From a virus (taxonomy: Duplodnaviria > Heunggongvirae > Uroviricota > Caudoviricetes): DNA of 29,804 bases. The notes beneath the pieces were generated by a model. The model saw only the letters and a program-made list of their open reading frames with translations, made no database searches and was not told where the DNA came from. The stretch lies in IMG/VR virus record IMGVR_UViG_2639762982_000016, positions 1-29,804 of that record; one strand, written 5' to 3'. Each line of letters opens with the position of its first letter. Position 1 is the stretch's first letter. Positions 10,210 to 24,839 of this stretch are shown piece by piece. Made by a program: the position numbers and the translations under genes.

Positions 10210-10535
10210 TCACCTCCGTTACCGTACAGAGTTTCAGCCGCTGATTTTTCTACATCCCTGGAAACAGGAGCGATCGCCATATCAGTGATCTGCAGATCGG
10301 CGCTGCGATTAACACCATCGTCAGTTTCTCTGGCAGACAGGCCTCGAATAACAGCCTTTGCAGTTATCATCACTTCTGTTCCGACGCCCTGAGGTTGCGC
10401 CTTCAGCTTATTCAATGTGTCGTTATTAAGAGTGATGCACAGCCCCCACGGGTATTCATCGCGAGTTCTGGTTTCTCCGCTCTCATCCTGGTAGCTGTCA
10501 GTGCCGGTTTTGAGGTTTACGAGTTCCATATACAC
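10206..10535 (-). CDS. Hypothetical virion-module protein (109 aa)
   Basis: ORF track; 4-nt overlap with the downstream gene; preceded by a hairpin at 10547-10564. Confidence 0.5.
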   Translation of the reverse strand: MYMELVNLKTGTDSYQDESGETRTRDEYPWGLCITLNNDTLNKLKAQPQGVGTEVMITAKAVIRGLSARETDDGVNRSADLQITDMAIAPVSRDVEKSAAETLYGNGGE

Positions 10536-10546
10536 TCCTGCAATAA

Positions 10547-10564
10547 AGGGGCCGAAGCCCCTTG
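10547..10564 (-). terminator. Hairpin GGGGC-UUCG-GCCCC followed by a U-rich tract; candidate partial terminator between head and tail genes
   Basis: Minus strand reads AAGGGGCTTCGGCCCCTTTATTG in the gap between the 114-aa and 109-aa genes. Confidence 0.4.
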
Positions 10565-10579
10565 TCGGATTCGCGAGGC

Positions 10580-10924
10580 TTACACGCCCAGTTCTTTACG
10601 CTTATCTGCGATCTTCTCGCGGAGCGTTTCGGCTTTAGCGTTATGGTGTGGCTTCTCGTTAAAGAGCAATTCGTACTCTTCACGGAGCTTATCCAGTTCA
10701 CCATCATCTGACACATCGTTGATGATTTTGGTGCTGGTTGCTGCCATAGACACCTTTCCTGCTACCTTTGCTTTTGCCTGTCTGGCTGCATCGTTAACAG
10801 GTTCCAGTGCGCTACCAGGCTCACCTTCGTATTCGATTTCTTCCCCCTCCGGCCACAGTGTGTTATGGATATGAGAGAGGCGCAGAACGCGGTATCTTGG
10901 TTTCTCACCTGACATCGATATCAC
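10580..10924 (-). CDS. Hypothetical head-module protein (114 aa)
   Basis: ORF track; lies between a head accessory gene and a hairpin. Confidence 0.5.
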   Translation of the reverse strand: MISMSGEKPRYRVLRLSHIHNTLWPEGEEIEYEGEPGSALEPVNDAARQAKAKVAGKVSMAATSTKIINDVSDDGELDKLREEYELLFNEKPHHNAKAETLREKIADKRKELGV

Positions 10925-10925
10925 C

Positions 10926-11363
10926 TTAACCAGTTACTTTTGAGCGGATCGGGTACGGCGTATTGGCATCAACATCCAGACTGATACCCGCAGTGAATTT
11001 GCCGGCCGTTAGTGGGCCAGTTGCGACGGAGTAGTTAACACGCAGATATCGCTGAACACCGGCAGGCACCTTTGCAGAAACAACTCGTTTACCTGCTGTC
11101 AGGGTAGCCTTTGCCAGTGCGCCACTATCATAAATAGTGGACCATGAGCTGTTATTCTCACTCGTCTGCAACTGGATGTTTACAGTTGCCTCACCACTTG
11201 CCGTGGCGGCTTCGTTAACCAGCACCCAAAACTCAAGCGGATAACCCACGCCGATATCGCGACGGTTTCCATCAATTGGACCGAGATCGATTACGTCAGT
11301 AGAAGCCGCGGTATTCGTAACCGCCTGAGCTTCGGAGAACATCAACAGTTTGTCGGTGATCAT
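10926..11363 (-). CDS. Putative head accessory / decoration protein (145 aa)
   Basis: Small Thr/Ala/Ser-rich protein immediately downstream of the major capsid gene; call is by position only. Confidence 0.35.
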   Translation of the reverse strand: MITDKLLMFSEAQAVTNTAASTDVIDLGPIDGNRRDIGVGYPLEFWVLVNEAATASGEATVNIQLQTSENNSSWSTIYDSGALAKATLTAGKRVVSAKVPAGVQRYLRVNYSVATGPLTAGKFTAGISLDVDANTPYPIRSKVTG

Positions 11364-11378
11364 CTTCTTTCTCCATTA

Positions 11379-11398
11379 GTGGGTCTGTTACGACCCAC
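11379..11398 (-). terminator. Hairpin directly after the major capsid gene (GTGGGTC-loop-GACCCAC); attenuator or mRNA-stabilising stem
   Basis: 7-bp perfect inverted repeat immediately 3' of the capsid stop, followed by the RBS of the next gene; no strong U-tract. Confidence 0.3.
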
Positions 11399-11414
11399 AG
11401 GTTAATAACAGGCG

Positions 11415-12407
11415 TTACACCACGCGGGCTTCTGTTTCCAGAAGCGCATCAGTTTCACGGATTGGTACACCACGGAATGAAGTCCACCACTCGCCTTCTG
11501 TCTCTTTTACGCTGATCGCCAGAGATGTTTTCTCCAGAGATTGCAGATCAAGAGCCTGGCCTACAGTGCGGTTCATGTAGAACACCGGGCGACCCATTCC
11601 ACGGTTTGGAATGCGATGCAGTGCTTTAACCATCAACTTCGCAATATTTGCGGCAGAGGAAGGTTCTGAAAGATTGCTGACATCGATGTTTGCAATGCGA
11701 ACAACATAACGCCAGTCACGCAGAGCAAGTCCGTTGTCCCATTTGTAATGGGTGCGATAGCCTTCGTACTTGCCGCCATTAGCATCTTCCAGTGTCACCT
11801 GGCCTTTATCTTCCATCTGGATGCCAGCCTTCTGCCCTTTCGGGAAGATGCCATGCACGGTGTTTTCGCCCCACACCACTAACCAGATTGAGGTGTTATC
11901 TGTACCCGTGCCACCAGCATCAATGATGTTCTGAGCATTACCCGCAGACAGGCTGGAATAGCGGGAGGACAGTCCCATAAACTGCTGAGGGTTAACGCTG
12001 GAATCACCATAAAACAGCGTCTGCGCCATCTGCTGATTCATCGCTTCAATAAATGCGCGGTCTTCAGACAGGCGGAATTCAGCGGAATTGCCGTTCAGAT
12101 CAGCCAGTGATTTATCGACTTCAGCATAGGTTTCCAGCATGCCAACGGAATCGGTTACCTGCACTGTGGTTGATTTGCTTGGCTGTACGCCATAGTTCAG
12201 CAAACGCCAGGTAGCTGAAGGTAAACCAGAACGAATGGTGGTTCGGTGTCCGGTAGGAAGGTTCCCTTCGACAAAAGGCATATCCTGAAGGATCGGGTTA
12301 GTTTGACCGAGAAGCTCGATAATCTTATCGACTTTCCCGTTTGGATCGACGCGCTTACCCCAGTCAGCCAGCGTTAGCGCAGTTAAGCCTTTAACAGCCA
12401 TTGTCAT
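11415..12407 (-). CDS. Major capsid protein (330 aa)
   Basis: ORF track; follows the scaffold-like gene and is followed by a hairpin; size typical of podovirus major capsid proteins (for example epsilon15-type, about 335 aa). Confidence 0.7.
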   Translation of the reverse strand: MTMAVKGLTALTLADWGKRVDPNGKVDKIIELLGQTNPILQDMPFVEGNLPTGHRTTIRSGLPSATWRLLNYGVQPSKSTTVQVTDSVGMLETYAEVDKSLADLNGNSAEFRLSEDRAFIEAMNQQMAQTLFYGDSSVNPQQFMGLSSRYSSLSAGNAQNIIDAGGTGTDNTSIWLVVWGENTVHGIFPKGQKAGIQMEDKGQVTLEDANGGKYEGYRTHYKWDNGLALRDWRYVVRIANIDVSNLSEPSSAANIAKLMVKALHRIPNRGMGRPVFYMNRTVGQALDLQSLEKTSLAISVKETEGEWWTSFRGVPIRETDALLETEARVV

Positions 12408-12415
12408 TTCCTCTC

Positions 12416-13117
12416 TTATTTGCCATAGAGCACTTCGGCCGCACTACGCTGGCCTTCATTACCACCGGTGACCATGCCATCTTCAGACATCGCCTTTCCG
12501 ATTTTCACGAACGTTTTGACCAGATCAGGGTGATTACCCAGCCCGGTGGTGTTCAGATATTCTTTGAGTTCAGGTGTCCCGAACTGGTCAAGCGCACGCT
12601 GTGCGGCGCTAAGGTTAGAAATCAACTTGTCGCCACCGATTTCTTTGTCAGCTTTTACATCCGCAGCCCACTGCTCGGTTGTTTTCTGCCAGGCTTCTGC
12701 CTGGCGCTGCTGAACACCTGCCAGAATCTTCGGATAAGCATCAACCAGCTTTTGCGCTTGCTCGTTGGTCAGGTTAAGTTCTCGCGCCACCGGCTCGAAT
12801 TCCTTCAACGCTTCTGTATCCAGCTCTACGCCTTCGGCAGCCTGAAACTCGTACTTCTCAGGCGCACCCTCTGGTTTATCGCCGTCCTTTTTTTCATCCT
12901 GCTTATCGTTTTCAGGCTTTTTGTCATCAGCAGGTTTATCGCCATCAGCAACAGGTTGTGGCTTATCACCTTCCTGTTGTGATGGATCACCAACTGGAGC
13001 AGGGTTATCACCTGCAGGCGCTGACGGTTCTGACGCAGCCGGAGCTGCTCCACCATCGACTGGTTGCTCATTGCAAAGACGGCTATACAGCAAACGCTCA
13101 AACAAATTCATGATCAC
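12416..13117 (-). CDS. Scaffolding-like protein (233 aa)
   Basis: Highly charged, Pro/Asp/Lys/Glu-rich N-terminal half and helical C-terminal half; sits between portal and capsid genes. Confidence 0.55.
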   Translation of the reverse strand: MIMNLFERLLYSRLCNEQPVDGGAAPAASEPSAPAGDNPAPVGDPSQQEGDKPQPVADGDKPADDKKPENDKQDEKKDGDKPEGAPEKYEFQAAEGVELDTEALKEFEPVARELNLTNEQAQKLVDAYPKILAGVQQRQAEAWQKTTEQWAADVKADKEIGGDKLISNLSAAQRALDQFGTPELKEYLNTTGLGNHPDLVKTFVKIGKAMSEDGMVTGGNEGQRSAAEVLYGK

Positions 13118-13410
13118 TCCTGTTCACTGGCCTCTTTGGCCATCTTCAAATACTGTTCAGGGCAATGCGCCATAACGCGCTGAAACAGTTCCAGCGCCAG
13201 ATTGCGTTGCCCCTCATTAAATGCCATTGCCATAGCGTCCATCGGTGAGATAGCGGAAAACACACGGCCTTTCTCCAGCACCGACCAGACAACGCGACGC
13301 CCCTGTTCACTGCTCATGACAAAGCGAATGTCATCAATTTCACGCTGCGCCATGTCACGTTGCTTACGGGCGTTTTCTTCTTTCAGTTGATCGTCTTCGT
13401 AATCTGTCAT
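13114..13410 (-). CDS. Hypothetical head-assembly protein (98 aa)
   Basis: ORF track; 4-nt overlaps with portal and scaffold genes. Confidence 0.5.
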   Translation of the reverse strand: MTDYEDDQLKEENARKQRDMAQREIDDIRFVMSSEQGRRVVWSVLEKGRVFSAISPMDAMAMAFNEGQRNLALELFQRVMAHCPEQYLKMAKEASEQE

Positions 13411-15086
13411 TGTGATTGCCCACCCTGACCACTAACTGCATTCGCCATAGCTGACAACACACTCGGATCCGAAGTTTTAGCTTCGCTTAGCGTCTTGGCC
13501 CCCTGTGCCGCCGCCATCCCCATCGCCATCATTTGTTGCTGCTGTTGTTGCTGTGCCCGTTGCTGGCGAGCCTGCTCAACCTGTCCCTGCGGAACAATGA
13601 CGGTTGGAGACACTCCGGACATATCAGCGAATGCATCGATCGCCTGATCAACGTTGAGTTTGTCGAGAGCTTCTGGTTTCGCTTGCGCAAGTTGACCAAT
13701 GAAGTTGACCGTAGACGCCAGACTGGACAGGCCGATAGACTTCTGCGCCTGAGCCATGACGGAAATGTATTCGACCTTCAGGGGCATACCTTCCATCGCG
13801 TCAGGCGGTGGCGGCAGCATGTTTTTACGCACCATCATCGAGAAAGCGCGGTCAATGAGAGGATTAAGACATTCGTCGTTCAGACGCTCCAGAACCGGCC
13901 CCAACATCAGAAGTTTTTCTTCTTTCATTTCGATCACTGCTTCAACAGGCATCGAGCGGGTATTGATGTTCTGCAACATCATGAACAGATCGACAAAGTA
14001 GGCGCTGTTAATGATTTGACGAGTGTCCTGAATGTCTGCTACCAGATCTGCTGTACTGGGGTTAACCAGATAAGCAGGCCTGAAGCCATCCTGACCAGTA
14101 ATCTGATCGATATACGTGATGTCGCCAGGAAGAAGGGAGGCGCGCTGATTCTTGAGGGAAGTCGGAGCAACCATCGGCGGATTGGTGGCTTTATCAATCA
14201 ACTGCGACTTGCGCTTCTGGAGAAGTTGCAATGCCTTAACAGGTCCAAGCGCCAGCATACCCGGGCATGATGATCCATAAACATCTTCGCCATTAACTTC
14301 CCAGCGCGGAGCCATAATTGGAAACTCATCAAATCCGGACTCACGCAACAACTTGTCGTTATCGCCACCAACCTCGTAATAAACCGATTTGAATGGCTTG
14401 TTCTTGCTATCCAGCTTCGATGTATCGCGGTCAATGTTCGGGTAAACCGAATGCATCACTTCAATCCACTTCTCGTAGGTGCCGCTTTCCCACATGCTTT
14501 TTACGTATTCGCTGACGTTATTTAGTCCGAACTCCTGAACAAGCTGACGAACAGTCATAGAGAACTTGCGAAAACAGGTGTCCACACTGCCACGAGGTGA
14601 GTTAGCCAGGTAGTAACTGCCTATCGGGAATGGCATTGTGCGAATGATGTCCTCATCATCCTCCAGCACTGCCATTGCACCAGTGCTGTATGTGCCTAGG
14701 CTTCCGTATAACTGCGGCAGTGACTGATAGAGATTCGACTTATTGAACATATCGTTCATGCGGTTCTGCACCGCCTCAAGCCACAACTTAACAGGGCCAT
14801 AATCCATCATTTCAGGATCTGGCGTAGCCAGGCGAAACCACGGACGCGCGGGGCTTGTGATGCCTGACATCATGCCGCTGGCGAGAGTGCGCGCCGCCAT
14901 AGTCCCGGTAGAATCAATAATGCGTGTATTGCGTCGATCGTTACGGTTGACCTCAGAAGTCAGAAAGCGGGAACCACGCGGGTTGATGTAATCACTCAAC
15001 TCGCGCCAGTGCGGCTCGAACGACTGACGCTCGCTTTCAAGTTGTGCGAACTGTTTGTTCAATCGCTCTTTAGTTGTTTCCGCCAT
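13407..15086 (-). CDS. Portal protein (559 aa)
   Basis: Position between terminase and scaffold/capsid; size; Gln-rich C-terminal tail; RBS GGAG 8 nt upstream of the ATG. Confidence 0.75.
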   Translation of the reverse strand: MAETTKERLNKQFAQLESERQSFEPHWRELSDYINPRGSRFLTSEVNRNDRRNTRIIDSTGTMAARTLASGMMSGITSPARPWFRLATPDPEMMDYGPVKLWLEAVQNRMNDMFNKSNLYQSLPQLYGSLGTYSTGAMAVLEDDEDIIRTMPFPIGSYYLANSPRGSVDTCFRKFSMTVRQLVQEFGLNNVSEYVKSMWESGTYEKWIEVMHSVYPNIDRDTSKLDSKNKPFKSVYYEVGGDNDKLLRESGFDEFPIMAPRWEVNGEDVYGSSCPGMLALGPVKALQLLQKRKSQLIDKATNPPMVAPTSLKNQRASLLPGDITYIDQITGQDGFRPAYLVNPSTADLVADIQDTRQIINSAYFVDLFMMLQNINTRSMPVEAVIEMKEEKLLMLGPVLERLNDECLNPLIDRAFSMMVRKNMLPPPPDAMEGMPLKVEYISVMAQAQKSIGLSSLASTVNFIGQLAQAKPEALDKLNVDQAIDAFADMSGVSPTVIVPQGQVEQARQQRAQQQQQQQMMAMGMAAAQGAKTLSEAKTSDPSVLSAMANAVSGQGGQSQ

Positions 15087-15100
15087 TTCAATGACTCCGG

Positions 15101-15307
15101 TTACTGACCAAGCAGCGTTTTACCGCTGGTATTAGCGGTTGATGTGTCGCCCTGAGAACCGGTAAGCAGCGTAGAACTACGACCAGCAGCAGCGCGACGG
15201 CGACGTGTTTCTTCGTCGCGGGCATCAACAACGGCGGCATCCTGCTCCTGTGGTGCTGCCTGAACTTCTGGTGTTGCAGGCACTGATGGTGAGCTACCCA
15301 TGCACAT
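15101..15307 (-). CDS. Possible small low-complexity protein (68 aa) upstream of the portal gene
   Basis: Has RBS GGAG-TCATTGAT-ATG nearly identical to the portal initiation region; low-complexity composition, so it may not be a real gene. Confidence 0.25.
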   Translation of the reverse strand: MCMGSSPSVPATPEVQAAPQEQDAAVVDARDEETRRRRAAAGRSSTLLTGSQGDTSTANTSGKTLLGQ

Positions 15308-15375
15308 ATCAATGACTCCGTACGCAATTAAATTATTACCAATTTAACCATATATGATTTATTTATCGTAGATAG

Positions 15376-15412
15376 TTGACATTTAACGCACGAATTATTA
15401 CCTTTCAGGTAA
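15376..15412 (+). promoter_or_regulatory. Candidate sigma70 promoter (TTGACA, 17-nt spacer, TACCTT) overlapped by an operator-like palindrome TTACCtttcaGGTAA at 15398-15412
   Basis: Consensus -35 hexamer at 15376-15381; the -10 match is weak (3 of 6); the palindrome matches the motif found in the immunity region. Confidence 0.35.
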
Positions 15413-15734
15413 GTAAAGGGTTCATTCCGGTTACTAACCTGACTGGCTTGTCGTTAAATTGAACAGGTGGAGTGAGCTTTTATTTTGAGCAGTACGGCGT
15501 ATGGCACATGCGCCGATAGCGGTCTGGATACGTTTAAGGGGCACCCTCCCTTGCTCGGGCAAACGAACCAGGTAGCCGGAATGTGCAAGTCGAGCGGTTT
15601 TATTCCGCGCACGGGGATTCACCATCCCGGCGATTCGGTGTGACGCCTCGGAAGAGACGAGGGTACAACGATGAGAGCATTTATGGAGCCGCGACAAAGT
15701 GTGGCGCCTTAACAGGCTAAGTGCTCTCAGCGTT

Positions 15735-15811
15735 GTGGCATTAGCTCAGTCGGACAGAGCAACCGCCTTCTAAGCGGTTGGTCGCAGGTTCGAATCCTGC
15801 ATGCCACGCCA
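15735..15811 (+). tRNA. tRNA-Arg, anticodon UCU (reads AGA), with encoded CCA
   Basis: Hand-folded cloverleaf: 7-bp acceptor stem GTGGCAT/ATGCCAC, D-arm GCTC..GAGC, anticodon stem ACCGC/GCGGT with loop CTTCTAA, T-arm GCAGG-TTCGAAT-CCTGC, discriminator G, then CCA. Resembles but is not identical to the host argU sequence as I recall it. Confidence 0.85.
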
Positions 15812-15854
15812 GAATCACGCCTAAGGACCGTGATGCCAGAAGTTCCAGGTGCTT

Positions 15855-15896
15855 GGCGGTGATGGTTTCCCTTGAAGGACTATCACCGCCCTTTTT
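15855..15896 (+). terminator. Long-loop hairpin (GGCGGTGAT...ATCACCGCC) followed by CTTTTT; possible terminator after the tRNA
   Basis: 9-bp inverted repeat with an 18-nt loop and a T-tract. Confidence 0.35.
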
Positions 15897-15974
15897 ACAG
15901 CAGGACGCCATTGCGATGACTTCATGCTGTAAACCCGTACAGCCACGGAAGGCATAACTCATTGCTTCCAGTTC

Positions 15975-15998
15975 GCCCGGTTCGCCGGGCATTTTTTT
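15975..15998 (+). terminator. Strong intrinsic terminator (GCCCGG-TTCG-CCGGGC plus T7) 12 nt upstream of the next start codon
   Basis: 6-bp GC stem, UUCG tetraloop, seven T residues. Confidence 0.6.
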
Positions 15999-16009
15999 AA
16001 GGTGAGATT

Positions 16010-16381
16010 ATGAACGACCAGCAAATCGAAAAAGAAATCGTTGAGAAAGGCAAAACGGCACCGCGCGTTACGCCAGACCATATCGAAGGCATTATTGCTC
16101 AGGAGGCATATTTCACAGCAGAAGATGGTGCCTTTGGCAAAGCCATAAAAGCGAAACATACTGGCGGAGAGGTAAACTACCAGCCGCACGAATCACTTTC
16201 TCTGCTGACGTTCTGCGTCCTGGTATTGCGCAACGGCTTCACCGTCACCGGAGAGAGTGCCTGTGCAAGTCCGGAAAATTTTGATGCAGAAATTGGTCGG
16301 AAGATTGCCCGGCAGAATGCTGTAAACAAAATCTGGATGCTCGAAGGTTACTTGCTGAAGCAGAAGCTAAGCGAGCAATAA
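16010..16381 (+). CDS. Small phage protein (123 aa), probably Gp49-like (N4 Gp49 / Sf6 gene 66 family); possible accessory (moron) gene
   Basis: RBS AAGGTGAGA; the motif block LTFCVLVLRNGFTVTGESACASPENFDAEIGRKIARQNA matches my recollection of that family; it is oppositely oriented to the flanking late genes. Confidence 0.5.
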   Translation: MNDQQIEKEIVEKGKTAPRVTPDHIEGIIAQEAYFTAEDGAFGKAIKAKHTGGEVNYQPHESLSLLTFCVLVLRNGFTVTGESACASPENFDAEIGRKIARQNAVNKIWMLEGYLLKQKLSEQ

Positions 16382-16384
16382 CAC

Positions 16385-16398
16385 CGTGACATGTCACA
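16385..16398. repeat. 14-bp palindrome CGTGACATGTCACA, copy 1 (downstream of the terminase large and Gp49-like genes)
   Basis: Perfect 12-bp palindrome GTGACATGTCAC with flanking C and A; an identical 14-mer occurs at 18650-18663. Confidence 0.6.
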
Positions 16399-16403
16399 AA
16401 CAG

Positions 16404-16429
16404 CCAGCCGATGAGCTGGCTTTGTTTTA
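16404..16429 (+). terminator. Intrinsic terminator (CCAGC-CGATGA-GCTGG plus CTTTGTTTT) ending the plus-strand cassette
   Basis: Stem-loop plus T-rich tract directly after the 16381 stop. Confidence 0.55.
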
Positions 16430-16471
16430 TCCTCATCAGAGGATATCAACGACATTATCCCCACCAGCGGA

Positions 16472-17947
16472 TTAAGCATACGGGTCATAATCTGTGATGG
16501 CCTTGCCTTGCTGGTTCTGCTGCCCAGGAATTCGCAGACGCTTCGACACAGGGAAAGCAAACGTCAGCAGTAGCGCATCGCCTTTACCCGGCGAACGCCC
16601 AAGTCGCTCTTTGATATCTTCCTTCGGTTCGATAACGATTTTACCGTCCACGCGAACTTTGTACTCTGCCGCCGACAGATCGTCCGCTGTTTCCTGGTCA
16701 TCCAGCATCCCGCCCAACCTCAGCCATGTCTTGCATGAGTTGAACATCTCCCCGCGCTTGTTGAGCATCTGAGGGTCAGTTGACGCACCACCGAACGGAA
16801 CAAGTTGCCATGTACGTCCCCAGCCATCACCGATTGACTTCAAACCGGTTCCGTAACCGAAGTCGATGAATACCGCGTCAGCCTGATACTGGTCTTCAAA
16901 GTCAGCGATGCGCTTCGCCATAATCAGATCGTCGGTGGTCTTGTTGCCAGTCCATAGCACCTTACTATGCAACCCCTGCCGCAGGTATATCACCGCGTCA
17001 TCAACGCCTGAATATGCCGGGTCAACACCGATTATCACCGGTGCATGTGCAACCTGCGCAGCAGTTACCACCCGTTTCATTGCCTCGTCAGTAAGACCGG
17101 TAGGGATAAACTGCAATTCAGATGCATTAGGGAATATGCCGCGCACACGGATTTTAACGAAGTCGCTGTCTTCCCCGTAGTCATCAACCCATTTCTGCAA
17201 TTGCTGCTTGTTAGTACCTTCCACCGTCCGGCTGTCAATCTGCGCAGTTTTCCAGCGGTGTTTATATTTGCGGAAACATTCACGGAATCGCCCGGTATTA
17301 CGCGTCGGGTTTCCGAACGCCACCCAGATAATCTCAGTGTCTTCGTCCGTTAGCGCACCTTCGGCAACTTCCCACACCAGATCCGCAATGTTCGACGCTT
17401 CATCAAACACCACGATGATGCGTTTGCGCTCGTTGTGTAGTCCGGCGAATGCCTCGGTGTTGTGCTCAGACCAGGGTATTGCGTCAGCCCGCCACCGCTT
17501 GTCGTGCCCTAGGTCATTGCTGTACATCGCGGTAGCGGTACAGGTAAACCAGTCTTTCGTGATGGCAAGGTTCGACCACTTGATAATTTCCGGCCAGGTC
17601 TTCGTTCGTAGCTGGTTGTCGGTGTTGGCGGTCACCACGACCTTACAATCCTCGCAAGTGGACATGCCCCAGTTGATCAGCATTGAGATGAATGCTGATT
17701 TACCAATACCGTGACCCGAAGCGCGTGCCAGCATAAGCGGCTGATAGCGCGTCTCTGGATTCTGCAGGTGATCACGTATCTCTCGGAACGCATCGGCTTG
17801 CCACTGACGTGGGCCGGTGGCATGTGCCAGTTCAGTCCCCTCTTCCCCCCACGGGAACGCATAGAGGGCATAGCCAAGCGGATCGTGAGTGAACCCTGCA
17901 ATATCCTCGATCAACTGCTCTTCAGGAGATAACGCTGTATCTGTCAC
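16472..17947 (-). CDS. Terminase large subunit (491 aa)
   Basis: Walker A-like ARASGHGIGKSAF near the N-terminal ATPase region; acidic nuclease-type motifs later; 4-nt overlap with the upstream small subunit gene. Confidence 0.85.
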   Translation of the reverse strand: MTDTALSPEEQLIEDIAGFTHDPLGYALYAFPWGEEGTELAHATGPRQWQADAFREIRDHLQNPETRYQPLMLARASGHGIGKSAFISMLINWGMSTCEDCKVVVTANTDNQLRTKTWPEIIKWSNLAITKDWFTCTATAMYSNDLGHDKRWRADAIPWSEHNTEAFAGLHNERKRIIVVFDEASNIADLVWEVAEGALTDEDTEIIWVAFGNPTRNTGRFRECFRKYKHRWKTAQIDSRTVEGTNKQQLQKWVDDYGEDSDFVKIRVRGIFPNASELQFIPTGLTDEAMKRVVTAAQVAHAPVIIGVDPAYSGVDDAVIYLRQGLHSKVLWTGNKTTDDLIMAKRIADFEDQYQADAVFIDFGYGTGLKSIGDGWGRTWQLVPFGGASTDPQMLNKRGEMFNSCKTWLRLGGMLDDQETADDLSAAEYKVRVDGKIVIEPKEDIKERLGRSPGKGDALLLTFAFPVSKRLRIPGQQNQQGKAITDYDPYA

Positions 17948-18540
17948 TGATTACCATCCTGACGTTCTTTGAGTCGCTTCCTGGCTGCCGCTATGCGATC
18001 AGCAATTGTCACATTCACATTAACATCCAGGCGTTCTTTGAACGCGTTGACGTCGACGTGCTTACCAATCAGTTCGAGGTTCTTCACCTTGTCAGGCCAT
18101 TTAATTTTTTTGAGGATTGTCTCTATCGAATCCTCGTTCATGTTCATGATGGTCGATGACAGATCAAAGCCGCTAAGCGTAGTGCGCCAGATTTTCGGCC
18201 ACTCGCGGATTGGCTTAAGGCTCCCATCGTCGTTGAGGATGTCGATCACGTCCATCTGGTCGATCTCCACCAGGCGCATGAGAACGTAATCAGCACTGAC
18301 GCGCATTCGTTTGTTGCGCTCCTCCATCAACTCGGCAATCCGTTTTTGAATGCGTTCATCGCGCATCATGACACTGGCTTTAACTGCCGCTGTATTTGGG
18401 GAGAATCCTGCGTTAATCGCTGCCTGAGTCTGGTTTTCAGGCGTTTTGATGTATGACTGGCAATAAGCCTCCTGCATTGCTGTGAGCGGCTTAAATTGCG
18501 TTGATTTGCGTTTATAGGTTTTAGGTTCAGCAGGCATCAT
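17944..18540 (-). CDS. Terminase small subunit (about 198 aa)
   Basis: Motif KPLTAMQEAYCQSYIKTPENQTQAAINAGFSPNTAAVKAS resembles small terminase (Terminase_2-type) N-termini. The ORF track extends to 18618 with a TTG start; I prefer ATG at 18540, but the start is uncertain. Confidence 0.65.
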   Translation of the reverse strand: MMPAEPKTYKRKSTQFKPLTAMQEAYCQSYIKTPENQTQAAINAGFSPNTAAVKASVMMRDERIQKRIAELMEERNKRMRVSADYVLMRLVEIDQMDVIDILNDDGSLKPIREWPKIWRTTLSGFDLSSTIMNMNEDSIETILKKIKWPDKVKNLELIGKHVDVNAFKERLDVNVNVTIADRIAAARKRLKERQDGNQ

Positions 18541-18579
18541 AACCACCGTGGTAATAGTTACCGTTGTGGTAATAGTACC

Positions 18580-18607
18580 ATGCAAAATAAAGCCGCCATA
18601 GTTGGCG
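18580..18607 (-). terminator. Intrinsic terminator-like hairpin (GCCGCCA-ACTA-TGGCGGC plus TTTATTTTG) just upstream of the terminase small gene
   Basis: 7-bp GC-rich stem followed by a U-rich tract on the minus strand. Confidence 0.45.
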
Positions 18608-18649
18608 GCAGTATTCAAAACCCGTCAAATTCATCATGCATAATCTAAT

Positions 18650-21701: not shown

Positions 21702-21778
21702 TTACCTCTGAGGTAATTAAAAACCACATAAGACACGAAATCAATAGATCTAAGAATATTTTGTTACCTATTAGGTAA
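21702..21778. promoter_or_regulatory. Two perfect operator-like palindromes TTACC-N5-GGTAA (21702-21716 and 21764-21778) between the P-like gene and the downstream genes
   Basis: TTACCtctgaGGTAA and TTACCtattaGGTAA; the first overlaps the RBS of the interrupted gene; a candidate TTGATT/TTTAAT promoter lies between them on the minus strand. Confidence 0.45.
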
Positions 21779-23569: not shown

Positions 23570-23687
23570 TCTGGTTACTATCTTCAATTTTTCCGCCCCT
23601 TTTTGTTATTGATATTGGCTATTTTGCACAATTGGAAAATTTGATCAACCGGATTTGGTTTTTTATTACCTTTGAGGTACGAATAGA

Positions 23688-24002: not shown

Positions 24003-24065
24003 TCACCCATAAGGTAACAAAAATCAAGGATAGTTACCTATGGGGTGCATTTACCTGTTGGGTAA
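24003..24065. promoter_or_regulatory. OR-like operator cluster with three TTACC-N5-GGTAA-type sites (24003-24017 imperfect, 24034-24048 imperfect, 24051-24065 perfect) between the Cro-like and repressor genes
   Basis: TCACCcataaGGTAA, TTACCtatggGGTGC, TTACCtgttgGGTAA; a candidate minus-strand promoter overlaps them. Confidence 0.55.
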
Positions 24066-24120: not shown

Positions 24121-24705
24121 ATGAAAAGTATCCAGGACGTCCGCAGGCAAAATCTCAACGACTTGATCGACCGTGAATTCAATGGTGTTCAGACGCGGAT
24201 GGCAGAAAAACTTGGAACTCAGGCAAATCTGGTAAACCGCTGGGCTCTTGGCAAGAAGGTTATCGGCGACCAGGTTGCGCGAAAAATTGAAGCTGCCGCC
24301 AATAAACCCCGTAACTGGCTTGATATCGATCGCTCGCTTTCTCAGGAAGGTTTTCAGCCTGTCGGCCCAAGCGACATTGGTCAGCTGGCGGCTCACAACC
24401 TGGAACGCTGGATGAGCGAAAGCCGCGACCTTTCAACACAGGGAAAACTTCACCGCGCATCCGGCGTCGCCCAGGTGACAATCAGCCGCCTGTTAAACAA
24501 TGAGGTCAGCGTTTCCATTTCCACCCTGGAGAATGTTGCATCCGCATTCGGGCGTCACGGCTATGAATTACTGATTCACCCGCACGACCCTGCGACCATC
24601 AACTATGACCGCTCGCGCTACGCATTGTTACCCGAAACCGAGAAAGCAAAGATCGAAAGTTACATTGAATTTGTCATCAACCAGAACGAAAAAAACAAAC
24701 AATAA
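24121..24705 (+). CDS. Immunity repressor candidate with two HTH domains and no recognisable S24 peptidase domain (194 aa)
   Basis: Divergent from the Cro-like gene; HTH-like segments at about residues 25-45 and 110-135; no Ser/Lys autocleavage motifs seen; followed by a terminator. Confidence 0.6.
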   Translation: MKSIQDVRRQNLNDLIDREFNGVQTRMAEKLGTQANLVNRWALGKKVIGDQVARKIEAAANKPRNWLDIDRSLSQEGFQPVGPSDIGQLAAHNLERWMSESRDLSTQGKLHRASGVAQVTISRLLNNEVSVSISTLENVASAFGRHGYELLIHPHDPATINYDRSRYALLPETEKAKIESYIEFVINQNEKNKQ

Positions 24706-24762: not shown

Positions 24763-24839
24763 TTACCTTAAGGGTAATTTTTTTAACTCATATCTATTGA
24801 CACCAAACCAAATACGCATAATCATTACCTCAACGGTAA
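24763..24839 (+). promoter_or_regulatory. OL/PL-like region: two perfect TTACC-N5-GGTAA sites (24763-24777, 24825-24839) flanking a TTGACA -35 hexamer (24797-24802)
   Basis: TTACCttaagGGTAA and TTACCtcaacGGTAA; the -10 candidate AATCAT at 17-nt spacing abuts the second site. Confidence 0.5.

Follow-up and report, generated by a model that had tools for sequence, protein, structure and literature searches.

A conserved structured leader RNA in a Uetakevirus prophage cassette with an Acb4-family gene, and its possible role in early phage transcription

What is a plus-strand cassette doing inside the minus-strand late block of a tailed phage, and how does RNA polymerase reach its last gene, which starts only just beyond a strong terminator? 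These questions are raised by IMG/VR record IMGVR_UViG_2639762982_000016, positions 1 to 29,804, the whole of which was analysed here and is called the window. An earlier note on this DNA had taken the cassette for a regulated accessory locus, composed of a promoter with an operator-like palindrome, a long leader, a tRNA gene, two tandem terminators and a Gp49-like gene, and had suggested that the leader could itself be a structured RNA. We report that the core of this leader is a conserved structured RNA, lying outside Rfam 15 and apparently undescribed, which occurs in three unrelated groups of temperate phages. We tentatively suggest that it is a cis-acting antiterminator for an early, repressor-controlled unit with counter-defence and accessory functions.

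The window is a phiV10/epsilon15-type (Uetakevirus) prophage of Escherichia coli; its 1.15-kb cassette region was 99.7% identical to a guaA-adjacent prophage in several E. coli chromosomes and 95.6% identical to phage phiV10 (Uetakevirus, epsilon15 group). RefSeq annotates in this region a hypothetical protein (a 68-aa gp3-like open reading frame, ORF), tRNA-Arg and a 'Gp49 family protein', and nothing on the leader. The tRNA and the 123-aa gene are known annotation; what is new here is the operator reading, the Acb4 counter-defence slot and the leader RNA. The leader extends from about 15411 to 15734 (324 nt) and, as had been noticed before, holds no convincing ORF, none being conserved in relatives. 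Its parts, all on the plus strand, are as follows.

15413-15493, plus strand: 5' leader, varying between genera (alignment A1); holds CATTCCGGTTAC at 15422-15433.
15494-15663, plus strand: structured RNA core, ~170 nt (covariation in alignments A3 and A5; covariance model R1).
15495-15503/15507-15515, plus strand: core helix P1.
15519-15527/15568-15576, plus strand: core helix P2, which encloses a variable hairpin region.
15571-15589, plus strand: invariant strand GGUAGCCGGAAUGUGCAAG.
About 15594-15608, plus strand: variable hairpin of the core.
15614-17/15625-28, plus strand: core helix P5, loop UUCACCA.
15630-45, plus strand: conserved stretch GGCGAUUCGGUGUGAC.
15646-50/15658-62, plus strand: core helix P6, loop GAAGAGA.
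15666-15730, plus strand: subfamily-specific tail, ending 6 nt before the tRNA.

The four helices of the core were tested for covariation in a MAFFT alignment that was not fitted to any structure (A3, 47 sequences with mutual identity below 94%); a second alignment (A5, 63 sequences) was fitted to the covariance model. In A3, 91.1% of the cells were paired compared to 29-48% with slid partners, the covariation score was 0.283 compared to at most 0.084 in the slid controls, and none of 500 shuffles reached the observed values. Twelve of the 26 pairs had changed on both sides, with 106 compensatory cells against 34.6 in the shuffles. For instance, one pair of P1 was AU in 26 and GC in 21 sequences and was never broken, one pair of P2 was CG in 35 and UA in 12, and three and four pairs covaried in P5 and P6, respectively. 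The frequent G-U pairs in both alignments are compatible with the plus strand only. The structured RNA that had been supposed is therefore borne out by these four covarying helices.

Covariance model R1 scored the window at 163.5 bits and recovered all copies of the family at 122-197 bits, including two without the exact 19-mer GGTAGCCGGAATGTGCAAG, namely that of Klebsiella phage Kp4865-1 and the second copy in contig L032. When Rfam 15 was searched with the whole window at gathering thresholds and with 15250-16500 at E ≤ 10, the tRNA model was the sole match, all other relaxed matches (E ≥ 0.02) being far below their gathering scores and located on the tRNA or the terminators. A literature search, which left most subscription journals outside, found no description of the RNA. 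GOLLD and ROOL are structured prophage RNAs without known function that often lie next to tRNA genes, are ~600-800 nt long, come from different bacterial phyla and are themselves modelled in Rfam; the leader RNA differs from them in being much smaller, and none of their models matches the window.

Pairings outside the tested helices were also seen. The segment CATTCCGGTTAC (15422-15433) of the 5' leader is complementary to the invariant core segment GTAGCCGGAATG (15573-15584) and the two pair in both the minimum-free-energy and the centroid folds, so that this pairing could be an alternative, sequestering structure; the complement was seen only in E. coli-type Uetakevirus leaders. RNAalifold proposed a long-range pairing GCACAU/AUGUGC that competes with apical P1, of which both strands are invariant, so that covariation neither supports nor excludes it, whereas lower P1 is proven by the AU/GC switch in A3. 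In the fold of the window, the tail segments GAGAGCAUU (15673-81) and AGUGCUCUC (15720-28) can pair and enclose a variable insert; between the same two strands, SPN9TCW, the Klebsiella phages and mEp460 have insertions that differ in length, and the tails differ by subfamily.

Of 5426 complete E. coli genomes, 1829 contained the core; its 2455 occurrences, 542 of them on plasmids, have no annotation beneath. When one genome per species was considered, it was present in Kosakonia, Phytobacter, Citrobacter, Kluyvera, Klebsiella, Erwinia, Pseudescherichia, Pseudocitrobacter, Enterobacter, Scandinavium and Escherichia. When the leader alone was the query of a distant-mode DNA search, matches were obtained in the lambdoid phages mEp460, cdtI, 2H10 and Ayreon, in Stx2c and some Stx2a (Shiga toxin) phages, and also in P7 and other P1-like phages. 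An exact scan of viral contigs for the 19-mer gave at least 120 loci, with 102 distinct cores among the matches listed; since most family members were gathered in this way, the invariance of the 19-mer is partly by construction.

Several individual copies deserve mention. The Uetakevirus Kp4865-1 (L007 1345-1541) has a diverged RNA (122 bits) with more compensatory changes in P2 and no tRNA, and its cargo position holds two plus-strand ORFs of 96 and 157 aa. Contig L032 has the RNA twice in tandem (3976-4982, minus strand; 190 and 145 bits), on either side of an ORF of ~166 aa that runs the opposite way, an arrangement that looks as if a foreign gene had been inserted via recombination within the element. 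A copy at 196 bits lies on a 1753-nt contig labelled 'MAG: Bacillota bacterium' (L151), which is probably mis-binned or a contaminant because the family was otherwise seen only in Enterobacterales. In Salmonella phage VB_ST_E15 (L003 1700-2000) the tRNA is missing, as is the 3' half of the RNA, whereas terminator 2 and an Acb4-family gene are retained; the junction falls within a 15-nt direct repeat, GTTTCCCTTGATGCT, of which SPN9TCW (L004 1506-2120) has one copy in the apical P2 region and another in the terminator 1 loop, so that a repeat-mediated deletion seems to have removed the missing part. Two T-arm-like hairpins, CTGGTTCAATTCCAG and GTC.GTTCGATTCGGAC, were found between the core and the tRNA or former tRNA position in SPN9TCW (~1830-1920) and Stx2a_1447 (L014, ~2690-2790), and could be what is left of decayed tRNA genes. 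Homology to the window in mEp460 and the Stx2c phages reaches the first tRNA bases, GCGTTGTGG, and stops there.

How such an RNA may bear on expression of the cassette depends on the elements that surround it, which are listed below together with the genes.

15376-15404, plus strand: putative sigma-70 promoter (-35 TTGACA 15376-15381, 17-nt spacer, -10 TACCTT 15399-15404; predicted start near 15411).
15398-15412, no strand: operator-type palindrome TTACCTTTCAGGTAA, covering the -10 and the start site.
15735-15811, plus strand: tRNA-Arg, anticodon UCU, CCA end encoded (ARAGORN; Rfam RF00005; called by the Prokaryotic Genome Annotation Pipeline, PGAP, in near-identical prophages).
15855-15896, plus strand: terminator 1, a 14-bp hairpin (15855-15890) followed by CTTTTT (hairpin scan).
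15897-15974, plus strand: conserved inter-terminator spacer, TTTACAGCAGGACGCCATTGCGATG... (alignment A1).
15975-15998, plus strand: terminator 2, GCCCGG-TTCG-CCGGGC (15975-15990, six G-C pairs), A, and seven T (15992-15998).
16010-16381, plus strand: acb4-family gene ('Gp49 family protein'), 123 aa, with ribosome-binding site AAGGTGAG at 15999-16006.
16402-16431, found on the plus strand by hairpin scan: terminator 3 (hairpin 16402-16421), between the cargo gene and the convergent large-terminase gene.

The consensus -35 hexamer reported earlier is present at 15376-15381. The putative -10 fits the consensus at three of six positions and was not listed by the promoter scan, as a weak element; both hexamers are invariant or nearly so in the Uetakeviruses of E. 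coli, Salmonella and Klebsiella (A1). The operator-like palindrome described in the earlier note also exists, although the overlap claimed for it, with the -35, was wrong, the real overlap being with the -10 and the start site. Ten copies of TTACC-N5-GGTAA (at most one mismatch) were found in the window against 0.55 expected, of which the pairs 24003/24051 and 24763/24825 bracket a helix-turn-helix (HTH) repressor gene (24121-24705, 194 aa): two copies lie between this gene and a cro-like gene, and two just past it. The remaining copies precede other blocks of minus-strand genes, among them that of the small terminase. Salmonella phage SPN9TCW, searched as a complete genome, has 18 copies against 0.54 expected, with three to either side of its repressor gene and another at the promoter of the cassette. 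TTACC-N5-GGTAA is, on this distribution, very likely the operator of the prophage repressor, and since its clusters flank the repressor gene we infer that the cassette would be repressed in the lysogen and turned on at induction or infection. In phage ZX5, a close relative, this repressor was experimentally identified as the key determinant of lysis and lysogeny (PMC9782041). The regulated nature of the locus is thereby strongly backed, its palindrome being one of an operator family that flanks the repressor gene in the window as well as in SPN9TCW. Because the promoter carries this operator, RNA-seq or northern blots of lysogens, as proposed before, would probably find little, and induced cells are the right sample.

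The nine further palindromes of the window are intergenic (18540-18572, 21702-21778, 23666-23680, 24003-24065 and 24763-24839), and their scatter along the phage resembles the dispersed C1 operators of P1. The two at 18540 and 18558 lie within the beginning of the 224-aa small-terminase ORF if this is read from the TTG at which it was called; its true start is probably the downstream methionine of MMPAEPK.

Downstream of the tRNA, the two tandem intrinsic hairpins that had been reported were both found, at 15855-15890 and 15975-15990, and the ATG of the last gene (16010) indeed follows the last T of terminator 2 (15998) by 12 nt. In both Uetakevirus and lambdoid loci the RNA is followed by a homologue of terminator 1 (GGCGGTG..CACCGCC + T5) whose stem has changed in a compensatory manner; terminator 2 has the compensatory variants GCCCAC/GTGGGC in E15-type phages, and the phiV10 record marks terminator 3 as a rho-independent terminator on the opposite strand. 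The sequence between terminator 1 and the ATG, read by eye, showed no convincing sigma-70 promoter. Because of this, and because terminator 2 is kept directly before whichever cargo gene is present, the downstream gene seems to depend on read-through, as the earlier note had proposed and as the anatomy of the locus suggests. Terminator-like hairpins downstream of the RNA numbered 230 versus 257 in the reverse complement, and this non-discriminating count was not used as evidence. A riboswitch or attenuator was considered and rejected, in view of the whole tRNA gene or 100-190 nt of unrelated spacer between the core and terminator 1 and of the P7-type copies without a terminator.

The gene behind terminator 2, previously called Gp49-like, is a member of PF13876 ('Phage_gp49_66') and can now be read as a counter-defence gene. 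Its 123-aa product matched PF13876 over profile positions 1-82 of 82 with E 8.6e-35 (119.5 bits against a gathering score of 27), and phmmer against the PDB gave 9E4W (Acb4 of SPO1, the phage in which Acb4 was characterised) with E 0.006 and a common ENF-x-EIGR motif. In the AlphaFold2 model (predicted local distance difference test score, pLDDT, 83), the best 13 Foldseek PDB matches were all 9E4W chains (prob 1.00, target-normalised template-modelling score 0.61-0.70), and the next match had E 0.09. PF13876 has been stated to be the Acb4 family, and all eight purified Acb4 homologues bound 3'3'-cyclic GMP-AMP (3'3'-cGAMP) (bioRxiv 10.1101/2024.12.30.630793). Thus, by its sequence and modelled fold, the protein belongs to the Acb4 family of sponges directed against cyclic-oligonucleotide-based antiphage signalling (CBASS). 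It shares with SPO1 Acb4 the Pfam family, the motif and a model that superposes on the 9E4W chains, and differs in a ~25-residue N-terminal extension, a low-confidence loop at 44-60 and an identity of only 21%; to the tetramer of Acb4 that binds 3'3'-cGAMP and blocks CBASS it is likened through sequence and predicted fold only.

Other genes occupy the same slot elsewhere: a Tad2-like gene (Thoeris anti-defence 2, PF11195) in Klebsiella Uetakevirus ST512-KPC3phi13.3, a PHROG 'protease' family member in SPN9TCW, a coiled-coil protein gene in BUCT711 and another gene of unknown function in TL-2011b. Between phages that differ in cargo, homology breaks off precisely where terminator 2 ends and at the ORF ends. 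Because varied genes follow the same terminator 2 with such breakpoints, the slot is, from this comparison of genomes, a cargo position where counter-defence genes recur. Tad2, which is another protein family and absent from the window, takes the identical slot behind the RNA, tRNA, terminator 1 and terminator 2 in ST512-KPC3phi13.3, and also follows the RNA in P1-like loci.

What the RNA may do is best approached through the other phages that carry it. Contexts were counted over 131 loci, in which the RNA is always on the same strand as the adjacent early genes. In at least 60 of them the RNA starts 113-150 nt downstream of a cI-type repressor gene (HTH + S24, about eight repressor sequence types). 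For instance, in mEp460 the cI stop codon is followed by the cI terminator, two operator-like repeats, TTGCAT-17-TATCTT and, ~40 nt on, the RNA, and then by two terminators and the first gene of the ~8-kb early-left operon; no N-like gene is annotated. The position of the RNA is that of putL and nutL. In the 17 P7-type loci it lies directly after tRNA(CAU) and before ban or a Tad2-like gene, inside the operon behind the C1 operators Op(ban), and in the 30 Uetakevirus loci it lies upstream of tRNA-Arg(UCU). A flanking tRNA was downstream in 30 loci and upstream in 17, and 84 loci had none nearby. As a side observation, in ST64B, a lambdoid phage without N, a gene-free gap of 815 nt separates cI from the first early-left gene (L137 27238-28052); the RNA was not found in this gap, which may hide a different element.

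The three unrelated phage groups, Uetakevirus, lambdoid and P1-like, share one logic: a repressor-controlled promoter, the RNA, usually strong terminators, and early genes. Because of this shared order, and because the lambdoid case has no N protein, put-like antitermination is the simplest reading, and such a possibility has been raised for lambdoid phages without N (PMC12315714). We put the probability of the whole reading at about 0.4, and in what follows promoter activity, repression and, above all, antitermination are expectations. In the lysogen, repressor bound to the operator that overlaps the -10 would keep the unit silent. Upon induction or infection, host RNA polymerase would start near 15411 and transcribe the ~170-nt structured RNA first and tRNA-Arg(UCU) next, the latter being excised by RNase P, before it would meet two strong intrinsic terminators directly in front of the gene for the Acb4-family sponge, a protein that would soak up CBASS cyclic-dinucleotide signals. 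The structured RNA would act in cis on its own polymerase and make it resistant to termination, as HK022 put RNA does, so that only transcripts from the cassette promoter would reach the cargo gene. The same RNA may do the same job at the leftward early promoter (PL) of lambdoid phages without N and in the C1-controlled ban operon of P1/P7-type phages.

The put RNA is ~70 nt long and has two stems (PMC9378689). Like HK022 put and the HK639 putL-like RNA, the leader RNA is a multi-hairpin RNA found just downstream of a repressor-controlled PL in lambdoid phages without N, intrinsic terminators and then early genes come next, and it is confined to Enterobacterales; its place is that of put, the order being PL, RNA and two terminators in mEp460, and promoter/operator, RNA, terminator 1 and terminator 2 in the window. 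The foot of P1, five base pairs + CAUG (CGGCG...CAUGCGUCG), is even identical in sequence to that of put stem I. Homology to put was nevertheless rejected: blastn, nhmmer and model R1 (E ≤ 10) against HK022 and HK639 gave no matches, and the shared 5-bp stem foot is too short. Unlike put, the leader RNA has a core of ~170 nt with at least four conserved helices, exists as a single copy per operon with no putR counterpart, and also occurs in podoviral Uetakeviruses and P1-like phage-plasmids, often beside tRNA genes. put suppresses termination independently of proteins and in dependence on the beta' zinc-binding domain of the polymerase; for the leader RNA, antitermination is suggested by analogy, and it may tentatively be called a non-homologous processive antiterminator that works like HK022 put.

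Several points weigh against antitermination. Neither sequence nor covariance-model similarity links the RNA to HK022 putL or putR or to the HK639 putL-like RNA, its length is 2-3 times that of put, and no second, putR-like copy was seen near the rightward promoter PR in the lambdoid loci. A termination-resistant polymerase would pass terminator 3 into the terminase genes in antisense, with no obvious use. Terminator 1 accompanies the RNA across phage families, as its own terminator would, and the P7-type copies have no terminator before ban. Finally, the RNA is not indispensable, because VB_ST_E15 keeps terminator 2 and its Acb4-family gene after loss of the 3' half of the RNA and the tRNA.

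Part of this evidence would equally suit a non-coding RNA that is made early, stands alone and acts in trans, for instance as a sponge or decoy that captures a host factor or a defence system; terminators 1 and 2 would be its own terminators, and the cargo and the lambdoid early-left genes would be expressed by leaky read-through. Conservation of terminator 1 with the RNA in Uetakevirus and lambdoid loci, the absence of put homology and the E15 phage, whose cargo gene is still present beside a half-deleted RNA, are as expected for such a molecule. In addition, the flanking tRNAs (30 downstream and 17 upstream in the 131 loci) offer RNase P or 3'-processing sites that could release a discrete RNA, the long invariant single-stranded CCGGAAUGUGCAAG and GGCGA..GGUGUGAC resemble binding surfaces, and the RNA recurs beside counter-defence genes. 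However, the ~8-kb early-left operon behind two strong terminators in phages without N is then left unexplained, the P7-type copies lie without a terminator inside an operon, and no target can be named; we consider a trans-acting RNA somewhat less likely than antitermination, and well worth keeping in view.

A nut-like loading site for a protein antiterminator, either phage-encoded or made up of host Nus factors, would also suit the location just after PL, which is that of nutL as well as putL, and its invariant unpaired segments could bind a protein. Against it, the regions inspected held no obvious regulator gene common to the Uetakevirus, lambdoid and P1-like phages, and no N-like Pfam match was obtained among the downstream ORFs tested. 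We regard such a site as improbable, although host factors may play a part.

The tRNA itself leads to another explanation. The argU-like tRNA reading AGA that the earlier note had described was called as tRNA-Arg(UCU) both by ARAGORN and by the Rfam tRNA model (RF00005, full-length match, 73.3 bits against a gathering score of 29). AGA and AGG occur 5.4 and 5.2 times per 1000 codons in the window ORFs. The E. coli averages are ~2 and ~1 per 1000, so that AGA is roughly 2-3 times as frequent in the window. The AGA codons cluster in the genes at 178-9601 and in the early genes: all 26 of those in the structural/terminase block are in six large genes at 178-9601, whereas the genes at 9601-18618 (capsid, portal, terminase) contain none, and neither does acb4. 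A role of the tRNA as codon supplement is plausible but modest.

From this one might regard the cassette as an ordinary moron, composed of a tRNA for the rare AGA and an unrelated small gene, with the leader as a functionless pre-tRNA leader or spacer. tRNA-Arg(UCU) genes are common in temperate coliphages, and ileZ-argN-argO of Stx phage 933W is an example of such a tRNA cassette. The unit resembles morons in having its own promoter and terminator on the opposite strand between essential late genes, a rare-codon tRNA and swapped cargo, and the AGA content of 178-9601 and the early genes would fit. It is unlike morons in its operator at the promoter, by which it is probably silent in the lysogen rather than lysogen-expressed, in its conserved structured RNA and in the terminators before the cargo gene. 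The absence of AGA from the capsid, portal, terminase and acb4 genes, the compensatory changes in the core, the 84 of 131 loci without a nearby tRNA and the spread over three unrelated phage groups likewise speak against a moron, which we regard as very improbable; a functionless leader is largely refuted by the covariation and the tRNA-less copies.

That the leader codes for protein, through a minus-strand ORF (15434-15697, 87 aa) or a leader peptide AUG-AGA-... at 15671, is hardly credible even though ORFs are annotated over the homologous stretch in mEp460 (mEp460_037, in the orientation of the minus-strand ORF) and phiV10 and AUG AGA GCA follows a GAGG box in the window, since overlapping ORFs vary in strand and extent and are missing from many loci, the G-U pairs fit a plus-strand RNA only, and the indels that distinguish the variable regions have lengths not divisible by three. 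A tRNA-sensing AUG-AGA peptide was rejected, as ATGAGAGC is kept in 13 of 59 distinct members, and so was the minus-strand ORF, which is unconserved among loci.

The surroundings of the cassette are listed here.

13407-15086, minus strand: portal gene.
15101-15307, minus strand: gp3-like ORF (68 aa).
15308-15375: AT-rich block TTAAATTATTACCAATTTAACCA.ATATGATTTATTT, between the gp3-like start codon and the -35.
16472-17947, minus strand: large terminase gene.

With the gp3-like, portal and large terminase genes all on the minus strand, the cassette lies between portal and terminase on the opposite strand, just as had been described, and its architecture is kept across the Uetakeviruses of E. 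coli, Salmonella and Klebsiella. In alignment A1, the 105 nt directly after the gp3-like gene and the stretch ~15494-15683 are conserved in the phages of these three hosts. The AT-rich block is nearly invariant in them, more so than the flanking coding DNA, and may contain the promoter or a regulator site for the minus-strand structural operon.

Altogether, the leader RNA belongs to a family that roughly one in three complete E. coli genomes carries, that is also found in at least eleven further genera of Enterobacterales and that PGAP does not annotate; its proposed role in the early transcription of phages can be tested. It occupies one of the most tightly regulated places of a temperate phage, where transcription first begins after loss of the repressor. 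Should it be an antiterminator, it would answer the question raised for lambdoid phages without N, how their early-left operon is expressed, and would be a second independent RNA solution for reprogramming the E. coli RNA polymerase; it might then represent, as we tentatively propose, a second class of self-sufficient processive antiterminator RNA, structurally unrelated to put, in three lineages of Enterobacterales temperate phages, and would gate the earliest transcripts after derepression, including those of the counter-defence genes acb4 and tad2. If it acts in trans, it would be an early product common to many phages, for which no target is known. In both cases, genes for counter-defence sponges (Acb4, Tad2) lie behind one conserved expression module, which can be used to find further cargo genes.

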